A DNA stretch of 60,328 nt. Source: Streptomyces virus Wollford (taxonomy: Duplodnaviria > Heunggongvirae > Uroviricota > Caudoviricetes). The position numbers and the translations under genes are program-made. The notes beneath the pieces are model-generated. The model searched no databases, was not told the origin of the DNA, and saw nothing but the letters and a program-made list of their open reading frames with translations. This document shows positions 11,527 to 60,328 of this stretch, one piece after another (position 1 is the stretch's first letter; each line of letters starts with the position of its first letter). The stretch is taken from positions 1 to 60,328 of the IMG/VR virus record IMGVR_UViG_2974628344_000001. One strand, given 5' to 3'.

Positions 11527-11766
11527 TTACAATTCATTTGCATCACTGTCTGATTCATCTGACATATCCCAACTTGGTGGAGGTCCGGCAATCTTGCCAG
11601 CCTTATGCAATGCCAATAGCTTTACTGCTTCATCTGGATTAATGCCTCTTGCTATGCACATCATAATGTCATAGAGTCTTAGAAGCATGATTGTATTTAC
11701 TACTTCATAGGAGTCTTTATCAAATACATCTGTTTCAAGGGGATCATTAGCGCCGGGCTCGTTCAT
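11527..11766 (-). CDS. Hypothetical protein, 79 aa
   Basis: GGAGG RBS. Confidence 0.75.
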   Translation of the reverse strand: MNEPGANDPLETDVFDKDSYEVVNTIMLLRLYDIMMCIARGINPDEAVKLLALHKAGKIAGPPPSWDMSDESDSDANEL

Positions 11767-11921
11767 ACATCCTCCATTTTCAGTACGAAAGTCATTCCTT
11801 CTTCTTCATCGAAACAGTCGATATCTACATCAATTACATGATCAACTACATCGGGAGTTTCGATTTGGACCAGATATTCTGGATTCTTGCTCAGGATTTC
11901 AATCAGTTCTCTTGCTAGCAT
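11763..11921 (-). CDS. Acidic hypothetical protein, 52 aa (MLARELIEILSKNPEY...)
   Basis: Translated by hand; GGAGG RBS; ATGA overlap with the next gene. Confidence 0.65.
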   Translation of the reverse strand: MLARELIEILSKNPEYLVQIETPDVVDHVIDVDIDCFDEEEGMTFVLKMEDV

Positions 11922-12603
11922 TCAGTGCCTCCAGTGTTCTTGGGAAAACCTGCTTTGTCAGATCATTAACAGCTTTAGCATACTGCTGGATCTCGTATTG
12001 AGCATCATGCTCTAGTCTTTCTGCAAGGAAGTGAGCAACGGTAGCCAAACTTGTGGTCCAACGCCACCGGACGAACATTCCATATGCAGGAAGAAATAGT
12101 CTTGCCTGCTCTGGAGCAATTTCTTCGTCCATTGCTTGCTTATAGAGTTCTTCGCCCTTGAGAATATAGTCTACGAGAAGAGAGGTGAATTGATATCCCT
12201 TACTCTTATCGATAGGCTCTCCGCTTCCTTGCTTGGAATTAGCAGGCTTTGATCTCCATGCGCCACCATCTGGAATGTAGAATTCCGGCTCCTCGGTAAT
12301 GTATCTGCGAGAAGACTCATTCCATCCAGTTTGATCTTCCAGGTGGCTAGATGCTACAGCATACTTCCACCATTGACGCGCCACGAATAGTGGAGCGTAC
12401 ACCTCAAATGTCAATGCTGCATGTCTAAACGGGGAAAGATGACCTTCCCGTACAAGGAACTTTAGTAGTCTGTCGTCCTTGTTGGAAAAGTCATCTGATT
12501 CCTTCGCATAGGAAACACGAGCAGCATTGACGATAGACAAATCATTACCAAGACTATCAACTAGTCTTACGTAGCCCTTGTCTAATACATCAATCTTCGT
12601 CAA
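11899..12603 (-). CDS. thyX: FAD-dependent thymidylate synthase
   Basis: IVNAARVSY, HLSPFRHAALTFEVYAPLFVARQWWKY, WNESSRRY, EQARLFLP. Confidence 0.92.
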   Translation of the reverse strand: MTKIDVLDKGYVRLVDSLGNDLSIVNAARVSYAKESDDFSNKDDRLLKFLVREGHLSPFRHAALTFEVYAPLFVARQWWKYAVASSHLEDQTGWNESSRRYITEEPEFYIPDGGAWRSKPANSKQGSGEPIDKSKGYQFTSLLVDYILKGEELYKQAMDEEIAPEQARLFLPAYGMFVRWRWTTSLATVAHFLAERLEHDAQYEIQQYAKAVNDLTKQVFPRTLEALNASKRTD

Positions 12604-12835
12604 CTTCTAGCCATCCTTGTTCTTCAAAAGCGGTGACCCAGTCACTCGCTGGCAGATCTGATGGAACCATAACCACCTTGAAGGTGTGAATCTCACCACT
12701 TCGAATTTCACGAACCGCAAAATGGTCGCCTACATAGGTAATTTCGTGCGTTCCTTCGTAATGATTTGTGTTATTGCATACATCTTCAAACAGAAAGAGA
12801 CTCAGAATCTGCTCTGCACCTTCTCTGGTTGTCAT
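12590..12835 (-). CDS. Hypothetical protein, 81 aa
   Basis: ORF in a tightly coupled operon. Confidence 0.7.
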   Translation of the reverse strand: MTTREGAEQILSLFLFEDVCNNTNHYEGTHEITYVGDHFAVREIRSGEIHTFKVVMVPSDLPASDWVTAFEEQGWLEVDED

Positions 12836-12996
12836 TTCAGGTTCTCAATCTCTCCGTCTAGTCGCTTTATTTCTCTTTCGGCACGCTTAGCGCCTACCTG
12901 ATCACCGGCCCGAATTGCCTTGTCCATTGCTCGGGCTGCATTTCTGCGCTGCTCTCTGAGACTATTGAGCGCTCTGCGAACTCCCAGTTCACCCAT
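12832..12996 (-). CDS. Small helical hypothetical protein, 54 aa
   Basis: Start moved to MGELGV, overlapping the upstream stop. Confidence 0.65.
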   Translation of the reverse strand: MGELGVRRALNSLREQRRNAARAMDKAIRAGDQVGAKRAEREIKRLDGEIENLK

Positions 12997-13153
12997 TTTC
13001 TGACAACCAATCATGCATAGCCTTGATAATAACAGCTTGGCTAGATGCTTCCTTTTCGTTCTTCTCCTTGCGGGCGCGCAGGTAAGACTTGTTCGCAGCC
13101 TCAAGTATTCGATTTGCTTCCTTGACGTTCTTTGGTCTAGGAACCGCCATCAT
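12989..13153 (-). CDS. Basic hypothetical protein, 54 aa (MMAVPRPKNVKEANR...)
   Basis: Translated by hand; AAGGAG RBS. Confidence 0.65.
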   Translation of the reverse strand: MMAVPRPKNVKEANRILEAANKSYLRARKEKNEKEASSQAVIIKAMHDWLSENG

Positions 13154-13165
13154 CACTCCTTGGGT

Positions 13166-13579
13166 GTGACACTTTTGTCACGTTGTTTTTATCTGTCACT
13201 AGAATGTCACACCCAATGTCACTTGTCAAGGTGACAGACGTGACAGTGACACTGAGATTGTGTTGGCAGAAATGTCACGGCCCTTAATGTCACTGATTAT
13301 CTTACGTAGCTCAGCTTTGTCACGAGTTCCATCGTCCCATAGCTCTCTGACCAGGCGTGACACGCTTTTTGACTTGTCATCTGTTGTGTCACGACGTGGA
13401 ATTTCTGTCACGTTTGTCACGATTGGCGTGACAACAGGCGTTACAGTCTTAGTTTCCTTGACAGGAGTGTCATTCTTTGTCATGACAGTTTTGTCACGTG
13501 ACTTGTCATGCTTGTCACGTCGTTTGTCACTATTTTTGTCACGCTTTCGTGACAGACTTTCACCTGTCACGTTTGTCAC
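13166..13579. repeat. Dense array of TGTCAC/GTGACA hexamers (23 exact copies plus ~7 near-matches in 414 bp)
   Basis: Counted by eye: TGTCAC at 13176,13194,13205,13217,13273,13288,13318,13387,13406,13415,13492,13513,13525,13537,13565,13574; GTGACA at 13166,13231,13240,13246,13357,13428,13549. Confidence 0.92.
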
Positions 13580-14095
13580 GACTTCATTCAGACGGAAGAA
13601 TACGACATTCTTGAAGCCAACAAAAGTCTTCCACGGAAAGATCATCCAGCTCACCTTTCCGAACACTGGCATCCTCTTGGGAACCAGTCCATTGGCGCGC
13701 ATCTCTGAACGGTGCACGAAGCGCAGATACAATTCAAACAATACGCCTGCGATAATCGGTGGCGCTCCAAAAAGAACTTTTCCAGGAGTACCATAATTAA
13801 GCAGCGCTGCGTGCTCTACGTTCAGATATACTGACGTTCCTACAAAGGCGTAGGTGGCCAGCTTTGGGGCAAATCCACTGTCTTCTGTGCGGGCGTACTT
13901 GGATGCAAGATCAGCAACGAACAAAGCAGCTCCATCGAATGCGATACTTACTCCAAACGCCAGCTCCTTTGGAACACCGTAGAATTCTACAGCCATTGAG
14001 TAAAGGGACCACCAGCTTAGAGCAAGAGCAACGATAAGAACTGCTCCGAATGATACTGCACCTCGCCAGTCCATAAGACGCTTGAGGTTTTTCAT
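13226..14095 (-). CDS. DUF2637-like multi-pass membrane protein with a low-complexity linker and putative C-terminal helical/HTH domain
   Basis: Four N-terminal hydrophobic segments with ALSWWSL..AV..G.P..LA.GVSIAFDG; C-terminal helical SVSRLVRELWDDG...ANTISVSLSRL. Confidence 0.75.
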   Translation of the reverse strand: MKNLKRLMDWRGAVSFGAVLIVALALSWWSLYSMAVEFYGVPKELAFGVSIAFDGAALFVADLASKYARTEDSGFAPKLATYAFVGTSVYLNVEHAALLNYGTPGKVLFGAPPIIAGVLFELYLRFVHRSEMRANGLVPKRMPVFGKVSWMIFPWKTFVGFKNVVFFRLNEVVTNVTGESLSRKRDKNSDKRRDKHDKSRDKTVMTKNDTPVKETKTVTPVVTPIVTNVTEIPRRDTTDDKSKSVSRLVRELWDDGTRDKAELRKIISDIKGRDISANTISVSLSRLSP

Positions 14096-14112
14096 TCTAC
14101 TCCTTAAATGAC

Positions 14113-14144
14113 AAAAGGCAGGCGGCCCGTTAAGGCCGCCTGCT
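14113..14144 (-). terminator. Intrinsic terminator after the dps-like gene
   Basis: GCAGGCGGCC/GGCCGCCTGC 10-bp stem, CTTTT on the minus strand. Confidence 0.75.
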
Positions 14145-14150
14145 ATTCAG

Positions 14151-14552
14151 TTATCTTGCTGACTCAGAGAACATCCAGAGCCACTTATCGACGCCGCGCT
14201 TAATTTCGATTAGTACATCTTGCGTAGCGAGGTCGTCGGTAATATTAAAGATAGCACCTGAGAGCACCATTGTCAAGCTCTCAAGTGAACGCTTCATTCC
14301 ATTAGTCACCTGGAGAAATGATACTGACTCACCAGAGAATTCGTAAGAGATCTTAGGAGACAAATACATCTCTCTCGCTCTTGCACGTTCTGCTACTGTG
14401 TCAGCATATTCATTGATATCATCATGGAATTCATCCAGCTTCTCGTGAAGATAGAAGAACTCACTGCCTCGGAGATTCCAATGGTTCTCCTTGACTGCCA
14501 AGGAGAGAGTTAGCAACCATTCCAGAATCTCTTCTAGCTTCTGTTCTAGCAC
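14151..14552 (-). CDS. dps: Dps/ferritin-like protein
   Basis: HWNLRGSEFFYLHEKLDEF...ADTVAER and D.AT.D.L...DK.LW motifs. Confidence 0.85.
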   Translation of the reverse strand: MLEQKLEEILEWLLTLSLAVKENHWNLRGSEFFYLHEKLDEFHDDINEYADTVAERARAREMYLSPKISYEFSGESVSFLQVTNGMKRSLESLTMVLSGAIFNITDDLATQDVLIEIKRGVDKWLWMFSESAR

Positions 14553-14763
14553 GCTCCACCTCCTTGATCATTGATTTGATTTGATGATGCATCTCCAATC
14601 CTGGTTTGATATAGATATCATCGGTCGGACACCAGAGATATGGGTCGGAAGATGCATCAGGCTTAGTGCGCAATATTAAGTTATTATGACAATCGGGGCA
14701 TTCCCACGCCGGGGCGAGATCGTCCTTAATTAGCTGATTGTATTTATGTAATTCTACCCACAT
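14461..14763 (-). CDS. Hypothetical zinc-ribbon protein
   Basis: CPDC...CP motif; overlaps dps by ~90 nt. Confidence 0.6.
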   Translation of the reverse strand: MWVELHKYNQLIKDDLAPAWECPDCHNNLILRTKPDASSDPYLWCPTDDIYIKPGLEMHHQIKSMIKEVERARTEARRDSGMVANSLLGSQGEPLESPRQ

Positions 14764-14775
14764 GAATCTAGTCTA

Positions 14776-14982
14776 TCACGCATTTCTCAAATTGTAGAGA
14801 GTCGTGTGAAGCGTCTCTACTGCATCATCTATCGCGTTGTGTAGATTCTGGGTTTCTTGCTGCCATGCCTGATCTGACTCAATAGCCTCTCGCTTTAGAT
14901 CTTCAATAGCTTGATCAGCTTCATAAGCATCCCAGCCACAAGAGATCATGCATTCTCGGATGATTGATTCACATCTTGTCAT
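14776..14982 (-). CDS. Hypothetical protein, 68 aa
   Basis: Start moved to MTRCES; GGGAAG RBS. Confidence 0.65.
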   Translation of the reverse strand: MTRCESIIRECMISCGWDAYEADQAIEDLKREAIESDQAWQQETQNLHNAIDDAVETLHTTLYNLRNA

Positions 14983-15140
14983 TTGATCTTCCCATATTCT
15001 ATAAGAACGATTAGACACACCATACAAAGAGCAAGAACTCCGACGCCCGTTAGAATGTTTGGCCAGATAGCCAGACTAAGGACCATCAGAATAGTCGTGC
15101 TGAAGAGTATTGCTATAAATACTCGTTCCTTATTCGTCAC
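14979..15140 (-). CDS. Small two-TM membrane protein
   Basis: GTG start with AAGGA RBS; two hydrophobic segments. Confidence 0.65.
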   Translation of the reverse strand: MTNKERVFIAILFSTTILMVLSLAIWPNILTGVGVLALCMVCLIVLIEYGKIK

Positions 15141-15603
15141 GTAATCTTTCCTTGATTCTTGTTGTTGACATTCCTGTACGTCTGTCAATGTAAATCAGAA
15201 TTAGATCGTTCTCGTCAAGCCATTCCTTGGTGAATCCCATTTGACCATAATAGTCTCTACCAGCCCAGTCTGAGCCGATGGCAATTACTTCAATAAGGCC
15301 GCTGATACCTGCGTCGTTCATGACTTTGCAGGCATTCACAATGGACTCTTTTGAATCCTCTTCGCCAATATTGGGAACAACAAGGTCTACGTATCGGCAT
15401 GACTCCAGAACTAACTTGCGCTCTCTGAATGTCTGTACTGGCGGACCGGCCTTGAATCTTGCGATGAATTCATCAGTATTCAAACTGACAACTACCTTGC
15501 CATCACCAGCCAGCCTTTTGCAGGAACGGAGGAGTTCGACATGACCTTCGTGAAATAGGTCAAAAGTTCCTCCAGTATAGATGTTAGGCAAGTCTCTCAA
15601 CAT
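15130..15603 (-). CDS. Cytidylyltransferase (TagD/CTP_transf family)
   Basis: YTGGTFDLFHEGH (HxGH), SLNTDEF, RERKLVLESCRYVD, GSDW, STTRI. Confidence 0.88.
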   Translation of the reverse strand: MLRDLPNIYTGGTFDLFHEGHVELLRSCKRLAGDGKVVVSLNTDEFIARFKAGPPVQTFRERKLVLESCRYVDLVVPNIGEEDSKESIVNACKVMNDAGISGLIEVIAIGSDWAGRDYYGQMGFTKEWLDENDLILIYIDRRTGMSTTRIKERLRDE

Positions 15604-16228
15604 CCTTTGCCAGATTGTATCTTACGTATTCATTGAAAGCTCTTTCATCATTTTCCCACACCGGGCCAGCATTGGCCTCTTCATACGTCTTATCGTGCTC
15701 TGCCTTTCCAGCATAAGGATGCAGATGCTCAATGTCAACGTGCTCAAGGTAGGTAAGGGTTCCTAGTGCCTCTCCTAGAGCCTTCCAGTAGTTGTCTGCA
15801 AAAAGATGAATAAAGGTTGGCGGAACCATGTACCCAAGTATTTTTACAATACGAGAATCAAGGAATACACCCGTTGGGAGACCTTCTCTCTGATGGCCGT
15901 CATTTGCGTAGGCCACCATATTCACCTTGTAGTGATTGGCGATTTCGATATCCCATCGATATGTCTGAGGAAGAGTGTCATCACCAAGGAAGCCTATGAG
16001 GTCGTAATTGTCTACATGCTCCTTGGCAACTTCATTCAAAGTGCCCACAAGACGCTTTCGAGCACCAACACGAAGAGGAAGATGAGTATTCTGATATTCA
16101 ACCAGTTTTGGATCATCATTGTCTACACAGAAAACAACATCAACTTCTGCTGTGGTATAAATTGCGTGATAAAGTCTTTCAGCTTTGTCTGGTCGTCCTC
16201 TTGTTGGAACGATAACCAATATCTTCAT
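15584..16228 (-). CDS. Glycosyltransferase, GT-A fold (GT2-like)
   Basis: ILVIVPTRGRP, VDNDD, FLGDD, F.HLFADN. Confidence 0.8.
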   Translation of the reverse strand: MKILVIVPTRGRPDKAERLYHAIYTTAEVDVVFCVDNDDPKLVEYQNTHLPLRVGARKRLVGTLNEVAKEHVDNYDLIGFLGDDTLPQTYRWDIEIANHYKVNMVAYANDGHQREGLPTGVFLDSRIVKILGYMVPPTFIHLFADNYWKALGEALGTLTYLEHVDIEHLHPYAGKAEHDKTYEEANAGPVWENDERAFNEYVRYNLAKDVERLA

Positions 16229-16851
16229 GCATAATCCGTTTCTTGTACAATGCTCTTTTCAAGACCTGTGATATATACGAGGTCGGCCCATGTGGGCTTT
16301 GAGCAATATCCATTTAGCTCACCGGCCTTGGCGTACATGTAAAGAGTATCATCGTATTGGCCAGTCAGCCCATCTCTTTCGAGTAAAGCTTTGATCTTTT
16401 TTGCACCGGCCTCGGAATACATCATTGAGACTCCGCCATATCGCTGATAGACCTTCGTAAGACTTTTACTGACTCCGTCTCGACGCTCGTCAAATATCTT
16501 GTCAGAATCTCTTGGTATAAAGAGTGAGAAGAAATCCCAATCATCAGGAAGCTCTTGAATGCGCCGATCAAAATTAAGCTGAAAGTCATCACTCAGCAAG
16601 GCATCATCTTCAAATGTTACGATCGGTGCCTTTTCGAGAGCATTCAATACGCTGTACCAAATGCCCAAATGGCCCAGGCGTGCATCCCAGTTAATTGGAT
16701 ATGGGTGTCTTGCCTGAGCTTCACGTAGCTCTTCTACATTACGACCATCTACCGTGCAAACGCGAACATGCTCCCAGCCTTCTAGCTTTGGGAGCATTTT
16801 CTGAATGTAGTGCAGACGTGAGTAATCTATGCTGAAAATTGTGTATCTCAT
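16225..16851 (-). CDS. Glycosyltransferase, GT25-like
   Basis: VDGR, GHLGIWYS, IVTFEDDA, WDFFSL, GGVSMMYSEAGAKK; start moved to ATG 16851. Confidence 0.75.
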   Translation of the reverse strand: MRYTIFSIDYSRLHYIQKMLPKLEGWEHVRVCTVDGRNVEELREAQARHPYPINWDARLGHLGIWYSVLNALEKAPIVTFEDDALLSDDFQLNFDRRIQELPDDWDFFSLFIPRDSDKIFDERRDGVSKSLTKVYQRYGGVSMMYSEAGAKKIKALLERDGLTGQYDDTLYMYAKAGELNGYCSKPTWADLVYITGLEKSIVQETDYA

Positions 16852-16854
16852 AAG

Positions 16855-16927
16855 ATCCCCGCCTCGGATTCGAACCGAGAATTCTTCCTTACGAGGGAAG
16901 TGTGTTGCCATTTACTACTAACGGGGC
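16855..16927 (-). tRNA. Degenerate tRNA-Thr(CGT)
   Basis: Cloverleaf folded by hand: anticodon arm CTTCC-CTCGTAA-GGAAG, T arm CTCGG-TTCGAAT-CCGAG; G1.A72 mismatch, bulged D-stem, no CCA. Confidence 0.7.
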
Positions 16928-16936
16928 ACAGTGGAA

Positions 16937-17404
16937 TCAGAGCTTCCACCAGGCTCTTCTACGACGACGATGGACTTTTCTGTTAACTACGCTCAGTATA
17001 CACAAGACAGTAGCTATCGTCAACACGAACGGTGCTGCGCTGACATACCACAGGATTGCTGTGACAGAGAAAAGAACTAATCTCGTCTTCCATAGCAGAG
17101 AAATGCCTGGCCTTCTTGGGGCTGGTCGGCTACTTCCTGCAAATCTTGCACCTTTGCTTTGATTGCATCTCAAATGAGCAAGAGCAACATTTCCCCATAC
17201 ATGACCCGGTGAGTCCTTTCTCCAACTCAAAGGAACGATGTGATCAAGAGAAGCAGATCTTGGATGTGGATACTTTAATGACTGGCGCACGCGCTTGCCA
17301 CAAAGATGACACTTCCAACCTGACTGTTGATACACCGCCCGGCGGGTAATGGATGGATCATATGCAACTCCATACTCTCTGCAACGATCCTCATCAGTTT
17401 TCAT
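16937..17404 (-). CDS. HNH endonuclease with two C-terminal TM helices
   Basis: CHLCG...SLDHIVPLS...GHVWGNVALAHLRCNQSKG, then two hydrophobic helices and an Arg-rich tail. Confidence 0.8.
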   Translation of the reverse strand: MKTDEDRCREYGVAYDPSITRRAVYQQSGWKCHLCGKRVRQSLKYPHPRSASLDHIVPLSWRKDSPGHVWGNVALAHLRCNQSKGARFAGSSRPAPRRPGISLLWKTRLVLFSVTAILWYVSAAPFVLTIATVLCILSVVNRKVHRRRRRAWWKL

Positions 17405-17444
17405 ATGAGAATAATAACATCAAAGGCGAATTTTCACAAAGGGC

Positions 17445-17999
17445 TCAGTACCAGCCCTTACGCTTGAAATGACTCCACGCATTACAGGGAGTTCCATAGC
17501 GAGGATAGATATACTTGTGCAGTCCCCAATTGATCTGGGTACGAGCATTGGTCTTCCAGTCCTTACCAGCACTGGCCATCTTTGTAGCAGGTAGCGCCTG
17601 GGGAATTCCATAAGCCCCAGAGTAGGGATTCTTTGCCTTGTAATTCCAAGAAGACTCCTTGATCCAAAGATTGTTCAGACAAGGCCACTGAGTCTTGTAA
17701 GTCTTCTTGTATGTTCCCTTGATCTTGCTGTAAGCATAATCCTTACTGCTCTTGACTGAGTTTGAATATGCAACAGGTGAAGCATTCAAGGTCACAGGCG
17801 GCGTGATCTTTGGAACATTTACAACAGGTGATTCATTTGTGCTTGGTGTCGCCTTTGGTGAGACTGACTGGGTAACATTAGGCTTTTCAGCCTCAAGCGG
17901 TAGTGCTCCCATATCTGATGCTGCCTGTGCAAATACTGCTGCCGCAACACCTAGACAAAGGGCCATGCTTGCTATGTTGCCCTTCATTTTCTGATCCAT
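17445..17999 (-). CDS. Secreted lytic transglycosylase (SLT-like)
   Basis: Signal peptide; CLNNLWIKESSWNYKAKNPYSGAYGIPQALP...YI..RYGTPC.AW. Confidence 0.85.
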   Translation of the reverse strand: MDQKMKGNIASMALCLGVAAAVFAQAASDMGALPLEAEKPNVTQSVSPKATPSTNESPVVNVPKITPPVTLNASPVAYSNSVKSSKDYAYSKIKGTYKKTYKTQWPCLNNLWIKESSWNYKAKNPYSGAYGIPQALPATKMASAGKDWKTNARTQINWGLHKYIYPRYGTPCNAWSHFKRKGWY

Positions 18000-18091
18000 C
18001 GGTTAACCTCCAGTTTGCGGGCTCTTGCCCGGCGTGAGATAAAACTCTACCGGAGTTACCAATTGGTGTCAACCTTGTAACCGTTCTGTAA

Positions 18092-18259
18092 TCAGTTAAG
18101 TACAGAGACATACTTAACGATTTGAACGTTCTTTGCACCATCCTCTTCAAGGATAGCCTTTTCGACACGAGCCTGACGAATTGGATAGAGAGCGTCAGTT
18201 TCGTATGACTTGCCATCAAGTTCATACTTGAGGTAGTAACGATCTACGTTCTGCATCAT
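18092..18259 (-). CDS. Hypothetical protein, 55 aa (MMQNVDRYYLKYELDG...)
   Basis: Translated by hand; GGAAGG RBS; ATGA coupling. Confidence 0.65.
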   Translation of the reverse strand: MMQNVDRYYLKYELDGKSYETDALYPIRQARVEKAILEEDGAKNVQIVKYVSVLN

Positions 18260-18408
18260 TTTTCCTTCCGATGATTGACATTGAAGTCTGTGATTCCGAC
18301 CTTCTTCAAATGAACAGATAATTCATCAAGTTCTTTCAGAGATCGAATAATCTTCTTTTGATACTTACCCTTGTTATCTGTATAAGTAACTATCCAGATA
18401 TCTTTCAT
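18256..18408 (-). CDS. Hypothetical protein, 50 aa (MKDIWIVTYTDNKGK...)
   Basis: Translated by hand; AAGGA RBS. Confidence 0.65.
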   Translation of the reverse strand: MKDIWIVTYTDNKGKYQKKIIRSLKELDELSVHLKKVGITDFNVNHRKEK

Positions 18409-18624
18409 ATTACTTCCTTGAGTTAGTAATCTAAGGTATTTAATGACTTACGTAGTAAGTCATCTCAATCTCGTTAGAGATTGAGTTAGTAATTTATATA
18501 GTCCCGTTTATGTAATAAACGGGTCTTACTACCCCTAGGAGTTGTACATCCAAGGAAGCAGCCAGTGAAGGAGTGGCAAGACCCGAAGAATCCACGCGAT
18601 CATGATCTGGACTTACGGAGGCAT

Positions 18625-18744
18625 AAAAAATGACCCCTCGGAAGGGGTCTTAATCAATCCGAGGGGTCAAAACATCCTCGGAAAGCTGGCGGACTATCCA
18701 AGGAGGACGTTAAGTTCAAATGAGGGGCCGCCAGACACCTTCCT
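18625..18744 (-). ncRNA. Candidate ~120-nt small RNA or attenuated leader
   Basis: Promoter TTGACA(18779-18774)-17-TACCTT; stem CTGGCGG/CCGCCAG; terminator GACCCC/GGGGTC followed by ATTTTTT. Confidence 0.4.
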
Positions 18745-18750
18745 ACTTAG

Positions 18751-18820
18751 AAGGTAACACGTCTAGGCTGCCGTGTCAAATGAGTGAAGGTTGAGTCATA
18801 GCTCAACCAACTGATATAAT
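18751..18820. promoter_or_regulatory. Back-to-back divergent promoters
   Basis: Leftward TTGACA-17-TACCTT (18779-18751); rightward TTGAGT-18-TATAAT (18791-18820). Confidence 0.65.
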
Positions 18821-18863
18821 CGTAACACAGCTCAAAGAGCATGTCAACGACGAAAGGACGACA

Positions 18864-19832
18864 ATGGATATCAGTTTCTCCACTATTCCAGGCAATCTTA
18901 ACACAACTATTGGTTATGGAGTTGCTGGATTCAACATGGTTAGAAGTCTGCAAAATCTGGGACACCGGGTTCCGTTCGCAGACAAGAATTGCAAGATCGA
19001 GATCTTCTTCTCACAGCCAGATTACTGGGAATGGTCTAACCAACTAGGTTATCATATCGGATATACACCGTGGGAGTCAACCCAATTGCCACCGGGCTGG
19101 CTTGAACAGATGAACTGTGCTGATGAGGTATGGACCACTAGTGATCTTATTCAGCGATGGTACACACGGGCCGGTGTGAAGAATGTTAAAGTTTATCCAC
19201 ATGGTATTGATCCACAGTGGACTCCGAAGAAGCGCAAGGTCTATACAAAGATGAAGTTCCTTCACATGGGAGAGCCTGCACCTCGAAAGGGCGGACAGAT
19301 GGCCCTTGATGCATTCCGTGCTGCGTTCGGAGACAGAGATGACGTAGAACTAACGATCAAGGCGCATCGCATCAATTCAGTGCGAAGGATAAACTCTGGA
19401 AGGATAGTAGGGTCTCCCGATGAGTACAGCAACGTCAAGCTAGTTACCAAGGAGTTCCCAGAAGACCTTCTTGTGGGCTTTGTACAGCAGCACCACGTAA
19501 TGGTTTATCCAAGTTGGGGAGAAGGCTTCGGTCTTATTCCTTTTCAGGCTATCGCCACTGGAATGCCAACGATCTGCACAGCTAAGTGGGCTCATTACAA
19601 AGACTACCTTGGACCTTTGGGTCTGTCATCTACTCTTGTTGATTCACCGTGGCCTGGTGTTCATCCAGGAAAGATGCTCAAGCCTGACTTTGATGAGCTT
19701 GTAGATCTGTACAGATATGCATACGACAACTTCTCTGACTTGAGCAACAGATTCTACGCTCAGGCACCCATTTTGCACGCTGAGTACAACTGGGAAAGCC
19801 TCACTAAGCAAGCGTTTAGTCACTTGATTTAA
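18864..19832 (+). CDS. Glycosyltransferase, GT-B fold (GT4-like)
   Basis: GYTPWES, PHGID, RKGG, YPSWGEGFGLIPFQAIATGMP. Confidence 0.88.
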   Translation: MDISFSTIPGNLNTTIGYGVAGFNMVRSLQNLGHRVPFADKNCKIEIFFSQPDYWEWSNQLGYHIGYTPWESTQLPPGWLEQMNCADEVWTTSDLIQRWYTRAGVKNVKVYPHGIDPQWTPKKRKVYTKMKFLHMGEPAPRKGGQMALDAFRAAFGDRDDVELTIKAHRINSVRRINSGRIVGSPDEYSNVKLVTKEFPEDLLVGFVQQHHVMVYPSWGEGFGLIPFQAIATGMPTICTAKWAHYKDYLGPLGLSSTLVDSPWPGVHPGKMLKPDFDELVDLYRYAYDNFSDLSNRFYAQAPILHAEYNWESLTKQAFSHLI

Positions 19833-21857: not shown

Positions 21858-21892
21858 GCCCGGCGTTATTGAGCGCCGGGCTTTTGCTTTTT
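21858..21892 (+). terminator. Intrinsic terminator after nrdJ; its U-tract doubles as a -35
   Basis: GCCCGGCG/CGCCGGGC stem followed by TTTTGCTTTTT; TTGCTT(21884)-17-TAGACT(21907). Confidence 0.8.
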
Positions 21893-31945: not shown

Positions 31946-32723
31946 GAGCAAAGCATTTGTAGGAGTAACCGCAGATACGACAGAAGCCAGTGCATTTACT
32001 GGCTTTTTGTCAACCCTGTCTGCGCAAATCAAAAGTGATGTAAACATGGCCCCGGTGTTGGATTATGCTCACTCTGCAATGAGCGATAAGTTTGATGCAT
32101 ACATGTCAGCTATCGCACCAACAGCGCCAAGTCAGTTCCATCACGTATATGACTGGGGAAGAATTGGTATGCCTCAGCACCAGCTTTGGAAGAATGTGAT
32201 CCGAGGACGAGGGGCCAATAAGTATGTTTCATTTGAATTCAGGGCGTCTGTGCTGCCTGTACCTCTACCAGAAGGAGACAAGGTTCCCTTCCGTAGAAAG
32301 CATCGATTCATCTATAAGGCTATGATCATGGAGTATAATATTGGTGTGACAATTACTCCTCGCCGGGCAAAGATGCTTGCATTCCCAGTTGATGATGGAA
32401 GAGTGATCTTCACTAAGGGACCTGTATTTGTAGAAAATCCCGGTGGAATGGGAACTACTGGAGCATTTACTGCGGCATGGTCTAATTGGTGGGGAGGCCC
32501 CGGTGCTAATGAAGCCTTTAATGGAGAAGTAAGAAAGGCTCTAGAAGATGATATGTCAGAAGGATCTATGAGAAGATTCTTCCGAAGATTCAAGAAGGCA
32601 TCATTCAGAAGAGGCACATTGTCAGTGACAGACTCTCGTACGGCATTTTCAGACGGGTCCCGCCTTGCACAAGAATTCCTACAGGAAAGAAACAGAAAGA
32701 ACGAAGGAAGGAGAAAGAAGTGA
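31938..32723 (+). CDS. Neck/tail-completion protein
   Basis: Synteny; GTG start after GAGGTG. Confidence 0.55.
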   Translation: MAKSKAFVGVTADTTEASAFTGFLSTLSAQIKSDVNMAPVLDYAHSAMSDKFDAYMSAIAPTAPSQFHHVYDWGRIGMPQHQLWKNVIRGRGANKYVSFEFRASVLPVPLPEGDKVPFRRKHRFIYKAMIMEYNIGVTITPRRAKMLAFPVDDGRVIFTKGPVFVENPGGMGTTGAFTAAWSNWWGGPGANEAFNGEVRKALEDDMSEGSMRRFFRRFKKASFRRGTLSVTDSRTAFSDGSRLAQEFLQERNRKNEGRRKK

Positions 32724-53320: not shown

Positions 53321-53346
53321 TGATCGAAACAACGAAAGGAACAAAC

Positions 53347-54576: not shown

Positions 54577-54615
54577 GAGTGAAGGATGCTATACTCTACA
54601 TAGCATATCCCCTGC

Positions 54616-55173: not shown

Positions 55174-55175
55174 TA

Positions 55176-55466: not shown

Positions 55467-55659
55467 ACGAGTTCAGTGGGGAATCAATTACAAGCACAAC
55501 CTTGGTAACTTCGAAAATGTAGATATCACGGCCGGTGTTGAATGTGATGTGCTTCCAGGTGAGTCTATCCAAGATGCCCTAGAGAGAGTATCTGGAGAAG
55601 TTCTGGAAAGCTTCTTTGGAAAGCTACCACAGATTACTGAGGCACTGGAGGACCAGTGA
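55450..55659 (+). CDS. Hypothetical protein
   Basis: Start moved to MSEKNE. Confidence 0.7.
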   Translation: MSEKNERVQWGINYKHNLGNFENVDITAGVECDVLPGESIQDALERVSGEVLESFFGKLPQITEALEDQ

Positions 55660-56003
55660 ACCAAAGGCAGCAGGCTCACGCACTCATTTCACTCTACAAG
55701 AAGCTGTATAAGGAGCGATATGGTATTGATTCATCTGTAAACTCCTATTCAGCGCAGTGGGGTTTTATGACTGCAATGAACGATCTAAAGTATCCGGTGC
55801 TGAGGGAAGTCCTTGAATACTACTTCACTTGTGATGCAAATGGTCACAATATAGACACCTTCTTTCACCGATACATGGAACTGAACAAGATGCGTCTTGA
55901 TCTGATTAAGGACGCAGAGAAGCGCAAGGAAATCATGCGCGAAACCGCAGAGCGAGTTCGAAGGATGGAGGAACGTGCCAACAACAGCGGAGAAGTTAAT
56001 TAA
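55656..56003 (+). CDS. Hypothetical protein upstream of the helicase (possible loader)
   Basis: Coupled ORF; function inferred from position only. Confidence 0.65.
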   Translation: MNQRQQAHALISLYKKLYKERYGIDSSVNSYSAQWGFMTAMNDLKYPVLREVLEYYFTCDANGHNIDTFFHRYMELNKMRLDLIKDAEKRKEIMRETAERVRRMEERANNSGEVN

Positions 56004-57195
56004 TTCAGTCTGCGCAACAAAGCAGATTGCTCCACTAATGGCGGACAACGTTGATGATCTATTTGGTCCCTTCCGGGATGTGTGGATCTCAATGCGTCAG
56101 TATTACATGCAGTACAAGTCCATCCCGGACATTACAGTTCTGACTGACAAGTTTAAGCAGCTAGAGGCAGTGCAGGCGGAAGCTGAACCTGCCTTCTATC
56201 TGGAAGAGCTGAAGTCAGAATTCCTATACTCTCGCATGGATGAAATCATGCAAAAGGGTATGGGCGCGCTGGACAAGTATGCACCAGCTCAGGTTCTTGA
56301 TAAGCTGATGCAAGAGCTGGGCAACCTTGGCAGGTTTACAAATAACGTTCGCGACCTTGATATCACTGACTACGAACAGGCCGAGAGGCACCTTCTAACC
56401 GTCAAGGAAAAGGCGGCAATTACAGGTGCAGTAGGTATCAAGACGAATGTTAAAGCAATTGATGCTGCCTATCCTACAGGCATGGCCGGTGGCCATTTCA
56501 TCGTTGCTATCGGTTGGCCAGGACGTGGTAAGACATGGTTCACTGCTTATCTAGCAATTCAGGCATGGCTACAAGGCTACAAGCCAATGATCGTCTCTCT
56601 TGAGATGAGTCCTGAGAACATGCGAGACCGAATCTATACAATGATGGCTTCTGGTCTGTTCTCTGCAACCGACTTTGCTCGTGGTCAAATCAATATCGAT
56701 AACTTCCGCGAGTGGGGAAAGAAGAAGCTAACTGATACTCCAGCATTCACCATTGTCTCAAACGAGGGAATTGGCGATGTAACTCCAAATGTCGTACAGG
56801 GCAAGATTGAGCAGCACAGGCCAGATATTGTGATCTGTGACTATCACCAGCTCTTTACTGACAATTCTAAGTCAGCCAATCCTACTCAGCGAAACATGAT
56901 GCTTTCAAAGGAATTCAAGCGTCTAGCCATGACGAATAACATTCCTCTGATTGACATTACTGCTGCTACTAACAACGATGGCATCTCAGGTCAGGACAAT
57001 CCTCCCATGTTGAGCCAGGTTGCGTGGTCCAAGCAGATCGAGTATGATGCTGACATGGCCTTCGCGGTTCACCGTGATAACGACAGTGGCCTGATTGAAG
57101 TTATTTCCAGAAAGAACCGTCATGGTTCAGACTTTGGGTTCTACCTTGAAGCTGATCTTGACCGTGGTATCTGGAAGGAAAGTTACGGCGCGTAA
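55975..57195 (+). CDS. dnaB: DnaB-like replicative helicase
   Basis: Walker A GWPGRGKT, SLEMS, ICDYHQL, SKQIEYDAD, KNRHG. Confidence 0.92.
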   Translation: MPTTAEKLINSVCATKQIAPLMADNVDDLFGPFRDVWISMRQYYMQYKSIPDITVLTDKFKQLEAVQAEAEPAFYLEELKSEFLYSRMDEIMQKGMGALDKYAPAQVLDKLMQELGNLGRFTNNVRDLDITDYEQAERHLLTVKEKAAITGAVGIKTNVKAIDAAYPTGMAGGHFIVAIGWPGRGKTWFTAYLAIQAWLQGYKPMIVSLEMSPENMRDRIYTMMASGLFSATDFARGQINIDNFREWGKKKLTDTPAFTIVSNEGIGDVTPNVVQGKIEQHRPDIVICDYHQLFTDNSKSANPTQRNMMLSKEFKRLAMTNNIPLIDITAATNNDGISGQDNPPMLSQVAWSKQIEYDADMAFAVHRDNDSGLIEVISRKNRHGSDFGFYLEADLDRGIWKESYGA

Positions 57196-57501
57196 ATGAT
57201 GCATAGTCATGTCAAAAGGTTTCAGGTGGACGGAATTATCAAAGATGATTCCGATTTTCCACGGCTGAGAGCACAATTCGAAGACATGCTGCTGACTGAA
57301 ATGCGCGATCGTGGATGGGCCCCGGTGCTGGATTTGGGGCCTTACTTTTCAACTGAATACAGAGAAGATGGATCATATAACTTTCTAATCACAGCATATG
57401 GGATATTTCTAGGGAGGCGAAAGGCTTGGGCGATCTCAGGGATATGCAATGGACAGGCAATACCAATGTCTACACCGAAGAACAAATCGAAGCGGTCTTG
57501 A
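57196..57501 (+). CDS. Hypothetical protein
   Basis: ORF between helicase and primase. Confidence 0.7.
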   Translation: MMHSHVKRFQVDGIIKDDSDFPRLRAQFEDMLLTEMRDRGWAPVLDLGPYFSTEYREDGSYNFLITAYGIFLGRRKAWAISGICNGQAIPMSTPKNKSKRS

Positions 57502-58502
57502 ATGACCTCGGTCTTGAGATCGACTCCGAAACTGGTAGAGACTTCATTTGCTTTTGTCCTTTCCACAATAACACGGAGACTCCGAGCTTTTCAGTTTCAA
57601 AGCACACGGGAGTCTTCCTGTGCTTCAATGCCATGTGTTCAGAACGTGGCAATCTAATTGAATTGGTTAAGAAGAAGTCAGCTTTTCCTCTAAAGGAATT
57701 TGAAGCAATGCGTTTCATTCTCAAGAGGAAGACTGGCAAGAAGTTGACAGCTCAGCAGAAGATCGATAAGATCAAGAAGCAGCGAGTTGATTTTGATATC
57801 ATGCCCGCTGCCCCATTTGATCGCATGTACGAATCATTCTGGAGTTATCCAGAGGCAGTTCGCTACATGGTAGAAGAACGAGGATTCGATGAAGATGTTC
57901 TTCAAGAATTCTATATTGGCTACTCTGCTAGAAACGACATGATCACTGTTCCAATGCATGACCCGGAGGGGAATTACATTGGTCTGATCGGCCGTGCGCT
58001 TGAGTCTAAGCGTTTTAAGAATTCCACAGCACTTCCTGTCAGCCGGACAATGTGGAATTTGCATCGTGCAAAAAAGGCCGGTGACACAGTAATCATTTGC
58101 GAAGCCAGCTTTGATGCTATGAGAATCCATCAGGCTGGTTATCCAAACGTAGTTGCCTTGCTGGGTGGTAATCTAAGCAATCTGCACATCGACTTGCTAG
58201 AACGATACTTCTCAGGTATTGTGATCATGACAGATTTCGATGACAAGTCAAAGTATGTTCAGAAGAATTGCCGAAAGTGCGAAGACCCTAATGACTGCCA
58301 GGGTCATAATCCTGGTCGAGAGCTTGGAAGTCTAATTGCCAGTCGAGTTAAGGGAAAGCGAATTCGATGGGCTGCAACAGATTACAAGCTTGTGTATCCT
58401 CATGGAGCCAAGGACGCAGGCGACATGACTGATGATGAGATTGTTCATTGCATCAAGAACAGTGTGTCCAATTTTGAGTACCAGCAGTGGGGATTGACCT
58501 GA
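57444..58502 (+). CDS. dnaG: DNA primase
   Basis: CPFH...TPSF...C; TOPRIM CEASFDA, ALLGG, DFD, KDAGD; start uncertain (57426-57444). Confidence 0.9.
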   Translation: MQWTGNTNVYTEEQIEAVLNDLGLEIDSETGRDFICFCPFHNNTETPSFSVSKHTGVFLCFNAMCSERGNLIELVKKKSAFPLKEFEAMRFILKRKTGKKLTAQQKIDKIKKQRVDFDIMPAAPFDRMYESFWSYPEAVRYMVEERGFDEDVLQEFYIGYSARNDMITVPMHDPEGNYIGLIGRALESKRFKNSTALPVSRTMWNLHRAKKAGDTVIICEASFDAMRIHQAGYPNVVALLGGNLSNLHIDLLERYFSGIVIMTDFDDKSKYVQKNCRKCEDPNDCQGHNPGRELGSLIASRVKGKRIRWAATDYKLVYPHGAKDAGDMTDDEIVHCIKNSVSNFEYQQWGLT

Positions 58503-58523
58503 TCAGCCCAAGTCTGCTATACT
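58494..58523 (+). promoter_or_regulatory. sigma70-type promoter
   Basis: TTGACC-18-TATACT. Confidence 0.7.
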
Positions 58524-58580
58524 CTTTATAGTAGGTTCGTTAGCAGCCTCGATAAAATACACAAGGAGTAAATAAACTAA

Positions 58581-59384
58581 ATGTCAGAACTAAAGGGTCT
58601 CGATGCGATCCGCGCTTATAAGAAGAAGATGGCCGAACAGGCTGCTGAGCGCGAGGAGCGAGCAAAGAATGCAGAAAAGCCTAGGGTAAAGTATCTTCGT
58701 CTAGGAGTTGACGAGTCTGTAAAGGTTCGTTTTCTACAGGAGATGGATACAGAGTCTCGCAACTATGATCCGAATCGCGGTGTAGGTATGGGTGCCATTG
58801 AGCACCAGGGAATTGATGACAATTTCAAGTACCGTGCAAACTGCACAATGGACACTGATAGCCGTTGCTGGGCCTGTGAAAAGTACCGCGCAGCTAAGAA
58901 GGACAGCAAGGAAAAGCAGTACGTACAAAAGAAGATGTACTACATCAATGTTCTTGTTGATCGTGGTGATGGCAATGAGCCAGAGGTTTACATTCTGAGT
59001 CGAAGCCTCAACTCTTCATTCGTGGTTGATCTTATGGAGGAAGCTGAGGAAGAGGGAAGCATCACCGAGAAGACTTATAAGCTTACTCGTCGTGGTGCTG
59101 GTACTGACTCAACTTATTCAATTCGTGAGGCAAAGAACGATACAACTTTCAATTCTGTAGATTTCGATAAGCTAGAGATCTTCGACATTGAAGGCCAGGT
59201 TCTTCGTAAGATTCCTTACGAGACTGATTACGAGAACAAGATTTTCAGCCAGGAGCAGTTCTACACTCAGCGTCCTGGTGACTGGAAGCGCGTCTTCGCT
59301 AACGAAGACGATGACTCTCAGCCTGCAACTGCTTCAACGCAGAAGACTGAGGATTCAGCTACCTCACTAGAGGTTGGTTGGTAA
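58581..59384 (+). CDS. Single-stranded DNA-binding protein (gp32-like)
   Basis: VRFL, C...CWAC, YYINV, YKLTRRG.GTD..Y, acidic C-terminal tail; located between primase and polymerase. Confidence 0.75.
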   Translation: MSELKGLDAIRAYKKKMAEQAAEREERAKNAEKPRVKYLRLGVDESVKVRFLQEMDTESRNYDPNRGVGMGAIEHQGIDDNFKYRANCTMDTDSRCWACEKYRAAKKDSKEKQYVQKKMYYINVLVDRGDGNEPEVYILSRSLNSSFVVDLMEEAEEEGSITEKTYKLTRRGAGTDSTYSIREAKNDTTFNSVDFDKLEIFDIEGQVLRKIPYETDYENKIFSQEQFYTQRPGDWKRVFANEDDDSQPATASTQKTEDSATSLEVGW

Positions 59385-59396
59385 TAGATTTGCGAG

Positions 59397-59451
59397 AGGC
59401 CCCCGAAAGGGGGCCTTCTTGCTTGACAGCTCTGATCAGGGCTGATAGTGT
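59397..59451 (+). terminator. Terminator hairpin fused to the downstream promoter
   Basis: AGGCCCCC-GAAA-GGGGGCCT, then TTGACA(59423)-17-TAGTGT. Confidence 0.75.
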
Positions 59452-59477
59452 GGACCTACACAACAAGAAAGGTAACC

Positions 59478-60328
59478 ATGAACATTACTGAGCTTCACCT
59501 TCATGATTACTACTCAGCTCTTGATGGATTGAATTCCCCCGATGAGTATATGGCTCGGGCAAAGGAGCTGGGAATGACACATCTTTCTCAGACTAATCAC
59601 GGAACACTGGCAGGGCATCGAGACTTCCAGCGAGCAGCCAAGGATGCAGGCATTGTGCCTATCCTTGGCGTAGAGGCTTATATCTCTGAAACCGGACGAT
59701 TCGATAAGACTGCCAAGAACAAGCGGACAGACGGTACCAGCGTCTACAATCACCTCATCATCCTTTCTCAGAATGAGACTGGACTCAAGACCCTACAGAC
59801 CATTAACGAAATTGCGTGGCGCGAAGGATACTACTACAAGCCGCGTATTGACATGGAGGTTCTTGAGGAGCACAATGACGGGCTGATCGTTCTGTCTGGA
59901 TGCCTCAATGGGCTCATCTGCAAGGCGCTCGAAGCTGGCAACGCCGAAAAGGCAATCAAGATTGCTCAGCGATTCAAGAGCATTTTTGGTGAGCGATTCT
60001 TCATTGAGGTTCAGGCTCACAATCCACTGGAAATGAATCAGGGCCTTCTGCATATTGCAGATTCTCTCGAAATTCGCCCGGTGGTAACAAGTGACTGTCA
60101 CTATGCTCGTAAGGAAGACCTATGGATTGAAGAGGCAATGCTAATTCTCTCCACTAATCCTAAGAGTATCAAGGACAGTGAATTCAACATGTCCAAGTCT
60201 CAGAAGATGGAAATCATGGAGAGGTTTAATTACCTCTATCCTGACCGAACGATGACGTTCCAGGAGATTGAGATCTATCTCCGATCTGCTGAAGAGCAGC
60301 GCAACGCCTTCCTTGAGCAGGGTATTGA
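59478..60328 (+). CDS. dnaE: DNA polymerase III alpha subunit-like, PHP domain (truncated by the window end)
   Basis: Translated by hand: MNITELHLHDYYSALDG...AKELG...TNHG...PILGVE.Y...HL.IL..N..G..L. Confidence 0.9.
   Translation, partial: MNITELHLHDYYSALDGLNSPDEYMARAKELGMTHLSQTNHGTLAGHRDFQRAAKDAGIVPILGVEAYISETGRFDKTAKNKRTDGTSVYNHLIILSQNETGLKTLQTINEIAWREGYYYKPRIDMEVLEEHNDGLIVLSGCLNGLICKALEAGNAEKAIKIAQRFKSIFGERFFIEVQAHNPLEMNQGLLHIADSLEIRPVVTSDCHYARKEDLWIEEAMLILSTNPKSIKDSEFNMSKSQKMEIMERFNYLYPDRTMTFQEIEIYLRSAEEQRNAFLEQGI

Follow-up and report, generated by a model that had tools for sequence, protein, structure and literature searches.

A strand-specific word in the genome of Streptomyces phage Wofford and its relatives as a candidate primase start signal

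Primase start sites are usually regarded as trinucleotides that are too short to mark genomes. Here we describe a word, SCCGGYG, that is over-represented on the coding strand in the genome of a Streptomyces phage (recorded as Streptomyces virus Wollford and called Wofford below), together with its counterpart in related phages, and consider whether it could be the start signal of the phage's own primase. The stretch analysed, hereafter the window, comprises the leftmost 60,328 bp of a linear genome of 133,007 bp.

The closest described systems are zinc-binding primases. DnaG primases use template trinucleotides such as CTG and CTA, in which synthesis begins at the middle base and the 3' base is cryptic, and make a purine-started primer (PMC2978363); for bacterial DnaG the initiation trinucleotides are d(CTG), d(CTA) and d(TTA) (Larson et al. 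2010, PMC2978363). In Staphylococcus aureus DnaG, two adjacent residues near the third zinc cysteine switch the cryptic-base preference between A and G, and the equivalent T7 residues do likewise (PMC2978363). The T7 protein gp4 recognizes 5'-(G/T)2GTC-3' together with its 3' flank (PMC12839067; PMC2978363). In T7, priming sites left of the origin belong to the - strand and those right of it to the + strand, and usable ones are spaced at 1-6 kb. Active sites require A/T-rich sequence on their 3' side and, some 10 nt downstream, a dinucleotide that is thought to be read by the zinc-binding domain (PMC12839067). Zinc-finger primases can also read longer G/C-rich words, since the abstract on AtTwinkle gives the word 5'-(G/C)GGA-3' with two cryptic bases (PMC5737085).

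We propose that the Wofford word belongs with these sites. With a probability that we put at about one half, (G)SCCGGY-R followed by a C-poor 3' flank is the initiation signal of a phage DnaG-type primase on the lagging-strand template.

The genome has a GC content of 47.7%. It carries an 11.2-kb direct terminal repeat, whose right copy begins at 121,794, and the remaining 121.8 kb are called the unique genome here. Wofford matches Streptomyces phage Elmer at 98.7% identity, and relatives of Elmer are placed in the family Stanwilliamsviridae, subfamily Boydwoodruffvirinae. Gene strands and functions were taken from the annotation of this near-identical phage, in which the first ~18.4 kb are read leftward except for two genes and the stretch of ~18.9-121.8 kb is read rightward throughout. 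Annotations within the group conflict in places: Elmer gene 100 (68976-69500), which is Coruscant gp191, is called a terminase small subunit in the former and a putative RNA polymerase sigma factor in the latter. The comparison covered the Karimacviruses Wofford, Elmer, StarPlatinum and Battuta (the last by count), the Samistiviruses Samisti12 and Bmoc, two further lineages, Tomas and Coruscant, and Karp of the subfamily Loccivirinae.

The word, its flanks and its strand

Dinucleotide-preserving shuffles of the window gave 5.61 +/- 2.20 copies of CCCGGYG, with a maximum of 12, against 50 in the actual sequence. The unique genome holds 62 copies on the + strand and 28 on the - strand. Tables of single-base substitutions revealed that three forms are enriched and skewed, namely CCCGGCG (33 on +, 10 on -), CCCGGTG (29 and 18) and GCCGGTG (36 and 11), and that nearly all other variants stand at background level. 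The full word, SCCGGYG, occurs 137 times in the unique genome (98 on +, 39 on -); in a genome of 47% GC, only about one copy per 10-20 kb would arise by chance. The fourth combination, GCCGGCG, has zero copies because GCCGGC is totally avoided.

The signal extends beyond the heptamer. The base 5' of the word is usually G. In the 3' flank, C is scarce between +3 and +9 (of 88 sites, 4 have a C at +6 and 3 at +7; p ~1e-5) and over-represented at +11; both the C-poor flank and the C at +11 are kept in all lineages. As a sequence pattern, Y at word position 6 is followed by G or A at position 7, the remaining bases there being at background. Together these features make the SCCGGYG heptamer the core of a longer signal.

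Not one of the seven Boydwoodruffvirinae genomes checked contains GCCGGC. In the unique genome of Wofford it belongs to a set of eight 6-bp palindromes that do not occur at all, although 9-35 copies of each are expected (AGGCCT, CCATGG, CCGCGG, CTCGAG, CTGCAG, GAGCTC, GCCGGC and GGATCC), and CAGCTG (1 copy) and GGCGCC (2) are nearly absent. This absence looks like strong restriction-site avoidance, which would imply that the phage DNA is not generally protected by base modification.

An earlier note on this DNA, made from the letters alone, had singled out CCCGGYG and counted about 34 copies between 11751 and 60083, where we found 35 (26 on +, 9 on -). Its coordinates were right within 1-2 nt for 24 of 25 copies on + and nine of nine on -; the copy given at 41721 lies at 41782, and one at 32051 had been missed. 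The orientation skew of 22:6 in the rightward arm of the window proved exact, and the enrichment is stronger than had been noted. The share of CCCGG running on as YG, put at roughly 70%, is 31/49 (63%) on the + strand. The GCCGGTG form, the avoidance of GCCGGC and the longer flanking signal had been overlooked. Selection at the level of DNA, with polarity, had been claimed, and it is borne out by the codon shuffles, synonymous contexts, sense-only excess and opposite choices of two genera described below.

To separate the word from protein sequence and codon usage, we shuffled synonymous codons within each gene, which keeps the protein and the codon usage of that gene. The enrichment does not vanish under such shuffles, an outcome that the earlier note had held open: coding CCCGGYG numbers 44 against ~6.6 on + and 14 against ~4.5 on -. 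Where the word is synonymously possible in sense orientation, it is realized at 45 places, with 4.5 expected. Frame 0 (Pro-Gly-x) carries it in 18/45 contexts (3.2 expected), frame 1 in 6/45 (0.3 expected) and frame 2 in 21/174 (1.0 expected), so that the word is enriched in all three frames, and it is present between genes as well. When every coding-strand hexamer was compared with this null without prior selection, the word family came out on top (CCGGTG, 77 against 22.7, z=11).

The excess is confined to the sense strand. Sense copies within genes reach 2-4 times a conservative null in the seven genomes compared, among them Wofford, StarPlatinum, Tomas, Coruscant, Samisti12 and Bmoc. In six of the seven, antisense copies match the null; Wofford alone has a mild excess (14 against 7.2), mostly made up of five copies around 17.2-19.1 kb. 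On the rightward arm of Wofford, sense copies stand above the codon-preserving null and antisense copies do not. An antisense enrichment found with the narrow CCCGGYG (13 against 3) was discarded, as with the full word and seven genomes it is limited to Wofford and largely due to the five copies near the switch in polarity. Non-coding copies lean to the sense orientation as well (23 to 14). Several of the antisense non-coding copies are second arms of terminator hairpins or lie within tRNA; in RNA genes, antisense copies fall in a tRNA acceptor stem and in terminator arms.

A signal acting in transcription or at the RNA level would explain this strand specificity equally well. The word would then be read in mRNA or in the non-template strand by a phage factor whose specificity differs between genera, for example one acting in elongation, anti-termination or RNA binding. 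That both arms and the terminal repeat show the enrichment on the coding strand alone agrees with this, as does the sense lean of the non-coding copies. In Bmoc, two copies in a + strand HNH gene of the leftward arm follow the gene and not the arm. The phage also encodes a Ro-like protein, an RNA ligase and a polynucleotide kinase, and the degeneracies Y and R would suit wobble pairing to RNA. A guide RNA, suggested by these wobble-like positions, was tried and rejected: 12/12 in-place G-to-A switches were copies of the word, and no antisense non-coding locus switched along with them. The absence of any complementary guide locus that switches in step speaks against RNA-level reading. So does a + gene region of Wofford (9.8-11.3 kb), where two copies follow the arm and not the gene.

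The distribution along genes bears on the same question. Placement is uniform, with no bias to gene starts or ends, and 135 of 190 genes (71%) have no copy, which equals the Poisson expectation; a signal in mRNA would be hard to reconcile with so many genes lacking it and with such indifference to gene boundaries. Spacing tracks the genome coordinate instead. Sense sites in the rightward arm are ~1.1-1.2 kb apart and more evenly spaced than random in Wofford (coefficient of variation 0.71, P=0.001) and StarPlatinum (0.82, P=0.04); three further genomes trend to under-dispersion and Coruscant does not. The last base of the word, moreover, co-varies with the replication module and not with a recognizable RNA-binding or transcription protein. 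We regard the RNA-level reading as unlikely, and prefer the primase reading to it because of the indifference to gene boundaries, the spacing and the covariation with the replisome.

Last base, replication module and primase

The last base of the word switches between lineages. Karimacviruses carry 84-99 copies of SCCGGYG on + and 31-39 on -, and only 12-14 and 5-10 of SCCGGYA. In the Samistiviruses Samisti12 and Bmoc, SCCGGYA is the commoner form (63-65 and 22-26) and the G form numbers 33-37 and 10-17. Tomas and Coruscant lean to G with some A, and Karp is at background for both. The choice is synonymous: among ~215 identical Pro-Val/Ala contexts in frame 2, Wofford has GYG 26 times and GYA 3 times, against 5 and 21 in Samisti12, although global Val and Ala codon usage is equal between genomes of opposite choice. 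Karp has a coding-strand word of its own, CGGCGGG(T), with 24 copies against 3.1 expected and 33 against 6.0; CGCAAGCT (21 on +, 0 on -) and TGAGCTT (45 and 5) are further words of this phage.

A host enzyme is unlikely to set the word, because phages of the same host differ in the last base and a host-type plasmid lacks the enrichment. StarPlatinum, with words ending in G, and Samisti12, with words ending in A, were both isolated on S. griseus ATCC 10137, and in the Streptomyces plasmid pFP1 (72% GC; a single plasmid, hence a weak host test) the word occurs 39/31 times against 30/30 for the reversed control. These results bear on a Chi-like function, in which a helicase-nuclease, either host AdnAB or a phage enzyme, would read the word and so protect or recombine DNA after entry at a double-strand end. 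The word has much in common with bacterial Chi, being short, G-rich, over-represented on one strand and co-oriented with the presumed forks. Its orientation would suit right-end entry across the rightward arm, the phage has RecA-like, Cas4-type nuclease and RuvC-type genes, and weak conservation of single sites is typical of density-type signals. However, the last base differs on one host, pFP1 shows no enrichment, the recombination genes have ordinary divergence profiles, and the first 11 kb from the right end are mostly in the inactive orientation. Known Chi densities are also far below one per 1.1 kb, and the phage word is about ten times denser than Chi or the FtsK orienting polar sequences (KOPS). 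We therefore consider a Chi-like function improbable.

The primase reading directs attention to the replication genes, which form a contiguous block at 55.6-62.8 kb (a small open reading frame and genes for a helicase, a primase, an SSB-like protein and DnaE; Table 1). Compared with Wofford, the primase is 96% identical in StarPlatinum, 80% in Tomas, 67% in Coruscant, 57-59% in the Samistiviruses and 52% in Karp. Between Wofford and StarPlatinum, proteins of the module are 96-98% identical, against ~83% identity of genome DNA. We compared Samistivirus and Coruscant identities to Wofford across 70 proteins common to five lineages. Samistivirus proteins are normally the closer ones, by a median of +7.6 identity points; the block accounts for five of the seven strongest reversals among the 70, with the primase at -9 points. 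This pattern suggests that whole replisome modules have been exchanged horizontally within the subfamily. Judged by these identities, the lineage with the changed last base, the Samistiviruses, is the one with an apparently different replisome. Around the DnaE-type polymerase gene, endonuclease genes were seen in metagenomic relatives (L074:12979-17032 and L073:3873-4514): in one relative an HNH endonuclease gene splits it into two open reading frames, and in two relatives LAGLIDADG endonuclease genes lie just upstream of DnaE.

Within the primase, the residues at -3/-2 from the third zinc cysteine vary with the last base among 10 genomes or contigs, being V-F in G-type phages, V-Y where both forms occur and T-Y in A-type phages. 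Counted in the sense orientation over matched stretches of 21 kb, G:A is 18:0, 19:2, 12:4 and 9:5 for V-F (Wofford, StarPlatinum, Tomas and a metagenomic contig), 3:7 and 4:7 for V-Y (Coruscant and a metagenomic contig), and 4:11 and 5:11 for T-Y (Samisti12 and Bmoc). These positions probably correspond to the residues mutated experimentally in S. aureus DnaG. In the solved zinc-binding domain 1D0Q they align to I-F of the sequence I-F-H-C. In these respects the primase fits MECHANISTICALLY. The covariation is correlative and would represent about two evolutionary changes. Prediction of the word from the beta-4 residues alone was abandoned, as distant metagenomic lineages have G-T-Y-I or G-S-Y-I primases without SCCGGYR.

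The same comparison bears on a different reader. The word could guide a phage FtsK/TraB-like translocase, in the manner of KOPS, the SpoIIIE recognition sequences (SRS) or the TraB recognition sequences (TRS), for instance when DNA is pumped between hyphal compartments. The earlier note had asked whether the rest of the genome encodes such an enzyme, and one was found: a 604-aa protein (genome 76084-77898; L008:16084-17898) with a hydrophobic N-terminal region and a P-loop motor that matches proteins on 57 Streptomyces plasmid records at 44-45% identity. A C-terminal winged helix is confidently predicted (alpha-beta-alpha-alpha-beta-beta, pLDDT, the predicted local distance difference test score, 75-87). 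The phage also encodes a DUF2637 (SpdB2-type) membrane protein (window 13226-14095), and both gene types are adjacent on pFP1. Every word-bearing member of the Boydwoodruffvirinae examined has the translocase, which Karp lacks; KOPS are polar 8-mers, and the pSVH1 TraB recognition sequence GACCCGGA shares CCCGG with the word (PMC5133688). Nevertheless, G-type and A-type phages do not differ in helix 3 or in the wing, divergence of the translocase follows ordinary phylogeny, no Pfam FtsK_gamma match is found in it, and Karp has its own polar word without this enzyme. TraB sites are clustered direct repeats in clt (PMC4447253), whereas the phage word forms 137 dispersed, evenly spaced copies. 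With a winged helix that does not co-vary with the word, and a clustered repeat of pFP1 that is the unrelated CACAACGGC, the translocase was rejected as the reader, and we regard such a guide function as very unlikely. Likewise, Chi, KOPS or TraB sites, to which the earlier note had likened the word, are not the best fit, as same-host phages differ in the last base and the translocase does not co-vary.

The translocase is of interest in its own right. A 49%-identical protein occurs in a Streptomyces prophage, and its pairing with an SpdB2-type protein suggests a conjugation-like module for DNA spread in lytic phages, to judge from these gene contents. A role of SpdB2 in the spread of phage DNA has been speculated upon (PMC4447253).

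The primase reading weighed

Under the primase reading, replication forks would set out both leftward and rightward from about 18.4-18.9 kb, running with transcription on each side, and the coding strand would be the lagging-strand template on both arms. The primase would travel with the DnaB-type helicase on that template and recognize the word there. A purine-initiated primer would start opposite the pyrimidine Y, and the GC-rich CCGGS part would be copied. The last base, G in Karimacviruses and A in Samistiviruses, would be read by the zinc-binding domain and not copied. Words would thus stand on the lagging-strand template at roughly Okazaki-fragment spacing, and selection would have raised their density about ten-fold through synonymous and intergenic changes. 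The Samistivirus lineage may have acquired or evolved a different replisome, after which its genome would have drifted from G-ending to A-ending words. The Wofford primase would be expected to prefer single-stranded DNA templates with GCCCGGTG over those with GCCCGGTA.

The candidate origin has features in keeping with this scheme. The cumulative GC-skew minimum lies at ~18.3-18.4 kb, GC content is 28-31% across 18300-18499, and the switch region holds two 16-bp direct repeats (18418, 18481) and two hairpins. Such features would be equally compatible with an origin and with divergent promoters.

Several observations weigh against the primase reading. The word lies on the - strand left of ~18.4 kb and on the + strand right of it, a geometry completely confounded with the direction of transcription; genes that run against their arm are few, and the hints they give conflict. 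The model does not predict the five copies that point inward at the switch. Of these, the copy at 17205 is kept in StarPlatinum and that at 19090 in both StarPlatinum and Samisti12, as a G form even in the A-type Samisti12. The right copy of the terminal repeat carries the word opposite to the orientation of the rightward arm. Under-dispersed spacing is significant in only 2/6 genomes. A core of 7-8 nt is unusually long, as characterized DnaG primases read 3 nt and that of T7 reads 5 nt plus a flank. The covariation amounts to essentially one clear switch, that of the Samistiviruses, plus one intermediate class, and the G-T-Y-I lineages without SCCGGYR mean that these residues cannot define the whole word. 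Outside the module, two proteins are just as anomalous, one encoded at 3229-3576 and the other a GNAT acetyltransferase (genome 101376-101780).

Site turnover belongs with these points. Of 117 aligned sites, 62 are shared with StarPlatinum (83% identity), and few are shared with Samisti12. Purifying selection on single sites is undetectable: the Wofford-Elmer substitution rate is 1.89% inside sites and 1.91% outside. Conservation at synonymous positions, on which the earlier note had staked its claim of selection, is not significant against StarPlatinum (24.5% changed at sites, 29.2% elsewhere, p=0.24). Gains and losses are compatible with neutral decay, and the 20 site differences between Wofford and Elmer are the number that neutral decay predicts. 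An apparent excess of site gains fell away; StarPlatinum lacks 47% of the sites anyway and is therefore unreliable for polarizing them.

Such decay would be expected if the word were a functionless by-product of a mutational or repair bias, for example very-short-patch-type repair coupled to a cytosine methyltransferase acting at CCGG. Most Wofford-Elmer differences at sites are indeed C/T changes at the inner C of CCGG, and the lack of significant synonymous conservation fits as well. But those C/T changes fall at the synonymous third codon positions of GCC/GCT and CCC/CCT, the Elmer annotation lists no DNA methyltransferase, and a repair bias should hit both orientations, which the antisense counts at null in 6/7 genomes contradict. 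It would also leave the even spacing, the asymmetric 3' flank to +11 and the covariation with the replisome unaccounted for. A by-product of this kind is, to our mind, the least probable of the explanations considered; it, the Chi-like function and the translocase guide each fail at least one test.

We read the word as a density signal of many weakly selected sites whose positions are not fixed. Density and not position would be the object of selection because two genera make opposite synonymous choices, and weak selection per site leads to turnover instead of conservation. On the primase reading, it is almost as likely as not that the primases of this family demand a long composite start, comprising a GC-rich core of ~8 nt, a C-free spacer and a downstream C, and that the genomes have been rewritten synonymously about every kb of the lagging-strand template to supply it, and rewritten anew after a replisome change, from G-ending to A-ending words or, in Karp, to an unrelated one. 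The searchable literature yielded no account of a primase word enriched genome-wide, nor of this word in Streptomyces phages, and a lineage- and strand-specific composite signal of ~20 nt with one copy per kb was not found described for this phage family.

If the primase reading is right, the sequence demand of a replication enzyme reshapes codon choice genome-wide, to the point where sister genera choose opposite synonyms, and strong codon-context bias in phage genes can stem from replication and not translation, which calls for caution. Primase specificity, origin position and fork direction would become readable from the genome sequence of a large phage alone. The Samistiviruses would provide a natural experiment on genome adaptation after a replisome swap, making the co-evolution of replisome and genome measurable. 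A biochemical test would be cheap, needing two oligonucleotide templates (GGCCCGGTG and GGCCCGGTA) and one two-residue swap.

Layout of the window and comparison with known systems

The positions of the word and of the features discussed are collected in Table 1. The antisense copy at 21874 is explained as the second arm of the hairpin at 21859-21880, and further terminator-like hairpins with stems of the word and its complement lie at genome 73218-73239 and 99317-99337. The copy at 27124 is private to the Wofford lineage.

Table 1. Features of the window and copies of SCCGGYG (start positions are those of the window)
Feature	Coordinates	Strand	Remarks
Leftward arm including the 11.2-kb terminal repeat, word mainly on coding strand	1-18408	-	20 copies on -, 9 on +; - starts: 466, 1181, 1648, 2690, 3475, 3832, 4137, 4561, 5041, 5886, 6876, 8384, 9846, 10254, 11751, 12903, 14707, 15659, 16320, 16404; + starts: 412, 4432, 6392, 7473, 8481, 9015, 17205, 17338, 18028
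Five inward-pointing copies near the switch, antisense to local genes	17205-19096		+ at 17205, 17338, 18028; - at 18963, 19090
Divergent intergenic region, polarity switch, candidate replication origin	18409-18863		skew, AT-richness, repeats
Rightward arm within window, word mainly on coding strand	18409-60328	+	36 copies on +, 6 on -; + starts: 19170, 20457, 21859, 23648, 23948, 25148, 26097, 26763, 27124, 30312, 31095, 31529, 32051, 32439, 32499, 35319, 37019, 38274, 39750, 40059, 41782, 42420, 43543, 45371, 47196, 48287, 52374, 53498, 53927, 54569, 55224, 55531, 56485, 57321, 58077, 60077; - starts: 18963, 19090, 21874, 24953, 32361, 40849
Terminator-like hairpin, arms formed by word and complement	21859-21880		stem GCCCGGCG with CGCCGGGC, then T run; 3' of ribonucleotide reductase gene
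Frame 2 example (..C CCG GTG, Pro-Val)	23648-23654	+	
Frame 0 example (CCC GGT G, Pro-Gly), portal gene	27124-27130	+	StarPlatinum and Samisti12 without word at aligned position
Frame 1 example (.CC CGG TG., x-Arg-x), minor tail protein gene	47196-47202	+	
Small protein, upstream edge of module	55656-56003	+	identities 75, 69, 50, 43%; anomaly -6.2; no Pfam match
DnaB-type replicative helicase	55975-57195	+	Pfam DnaB_C, E=2.8e-22; identities 98, 84, 75, 68%; anomaly -7
DnaG-type primase, proposed reader	57426-58502	+	Pfam Zn_ribbon_DnaG 35-88, Toprim 220-273; CHC2 zinc ribbon
SSB-like DNA-binding protein	58581-59384	+	DNA/single-stranded DNA binding annotation in relatives; no Pfam match; anomaly -16.6, second strongest in module
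DnaE-type polymerase III alpha, start only (gene to genome 62798)	59448-60328	+	Elmer annotation; identities 97, 90, 84, 66%; difference -18.4, strongest

The terminal repeat contains a separate intergenic element, CCGCCCCGG (read leftward), in ~18 copies at 765-9288 and 10447-11298. In most copies a GC hairpin comes before it and AAAAGATC after it. CCCGGY had been described as shared with this early-region dyad; the link is only partial, in that three copies in the terminal repeat happen to contain CCCGGCG. Words of the repeat region differ by genus, being TGGCGCCGGGCGCC-like in Coruscant and GACCGGGCCGGTC-like in Tomas.

How does the word compare with described elements? The TRS of clt, such as that of pSVH1 (PMC4447253, PMC5133688), are likewise 8 bp long, contain CCCGG and belong to Streptomyces mobile DNA, and the phage has TraB-like and SpdB2-like proteins; they differ as few, clustered repeats that the TraB C-terminus reads on double-stranded DNA, whereas the phage word is dispersed and strand-specific. 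Chi (RecBCD/AddAB) and KOPS/SRS (FtsK/SpoIIIE) are, like the word, polar over-represented 5-8-mers that are co-oriented with replication (for the word, with the presumed forks), lie within coding sequence and act as density signals. In contrast to it, they are set by host enzymes and common to all DNA of a host; the phage word differs between phages of the same host and tracks the phage replisome.

Among primases, AtTwinkle differs in its 4-nt word and its place in plant organelles, and its abstract reports no genome-wide enrichment. Bacterial DnaG shares with the phage primase the CHC2 zinc ribbon and Toprim domain, and its sites share the Y-R 3' end, with initiation at the pyrimidine as proposed for the word. 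In addition, a residue pair just before the third zinc cysteine sets its A/G preference, and the aligned phage positions vary with the last base. However, its trinucleotides occur often enough by chance without enrichment across the genome, and its specificity is conserved within each bacterial class, whereas that proposed here differs between phage genera.

T7 gp4 is, like the proposed reader, a phage zinc-finger primase, and it uses a short word on the lagging-strand template with a cryptic 3' base, a divergent layout and a role for the 3' flank, as the Wofford primase would. T7 has a fusion protein, whereas Wofford encodes a separate DnaG-type primase and DnaB-type helicase. The Wofford word is 7-8 nt long, GC-rich and about ten-fold over-represented by synonymous rewriting; its last base varies between sister genera, and it is known here from sequence alone. 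Thus, a primase recognition site is a known kind of element; its length, the synonymous rewriting of a genome to provide it and its switch between genera would be new.

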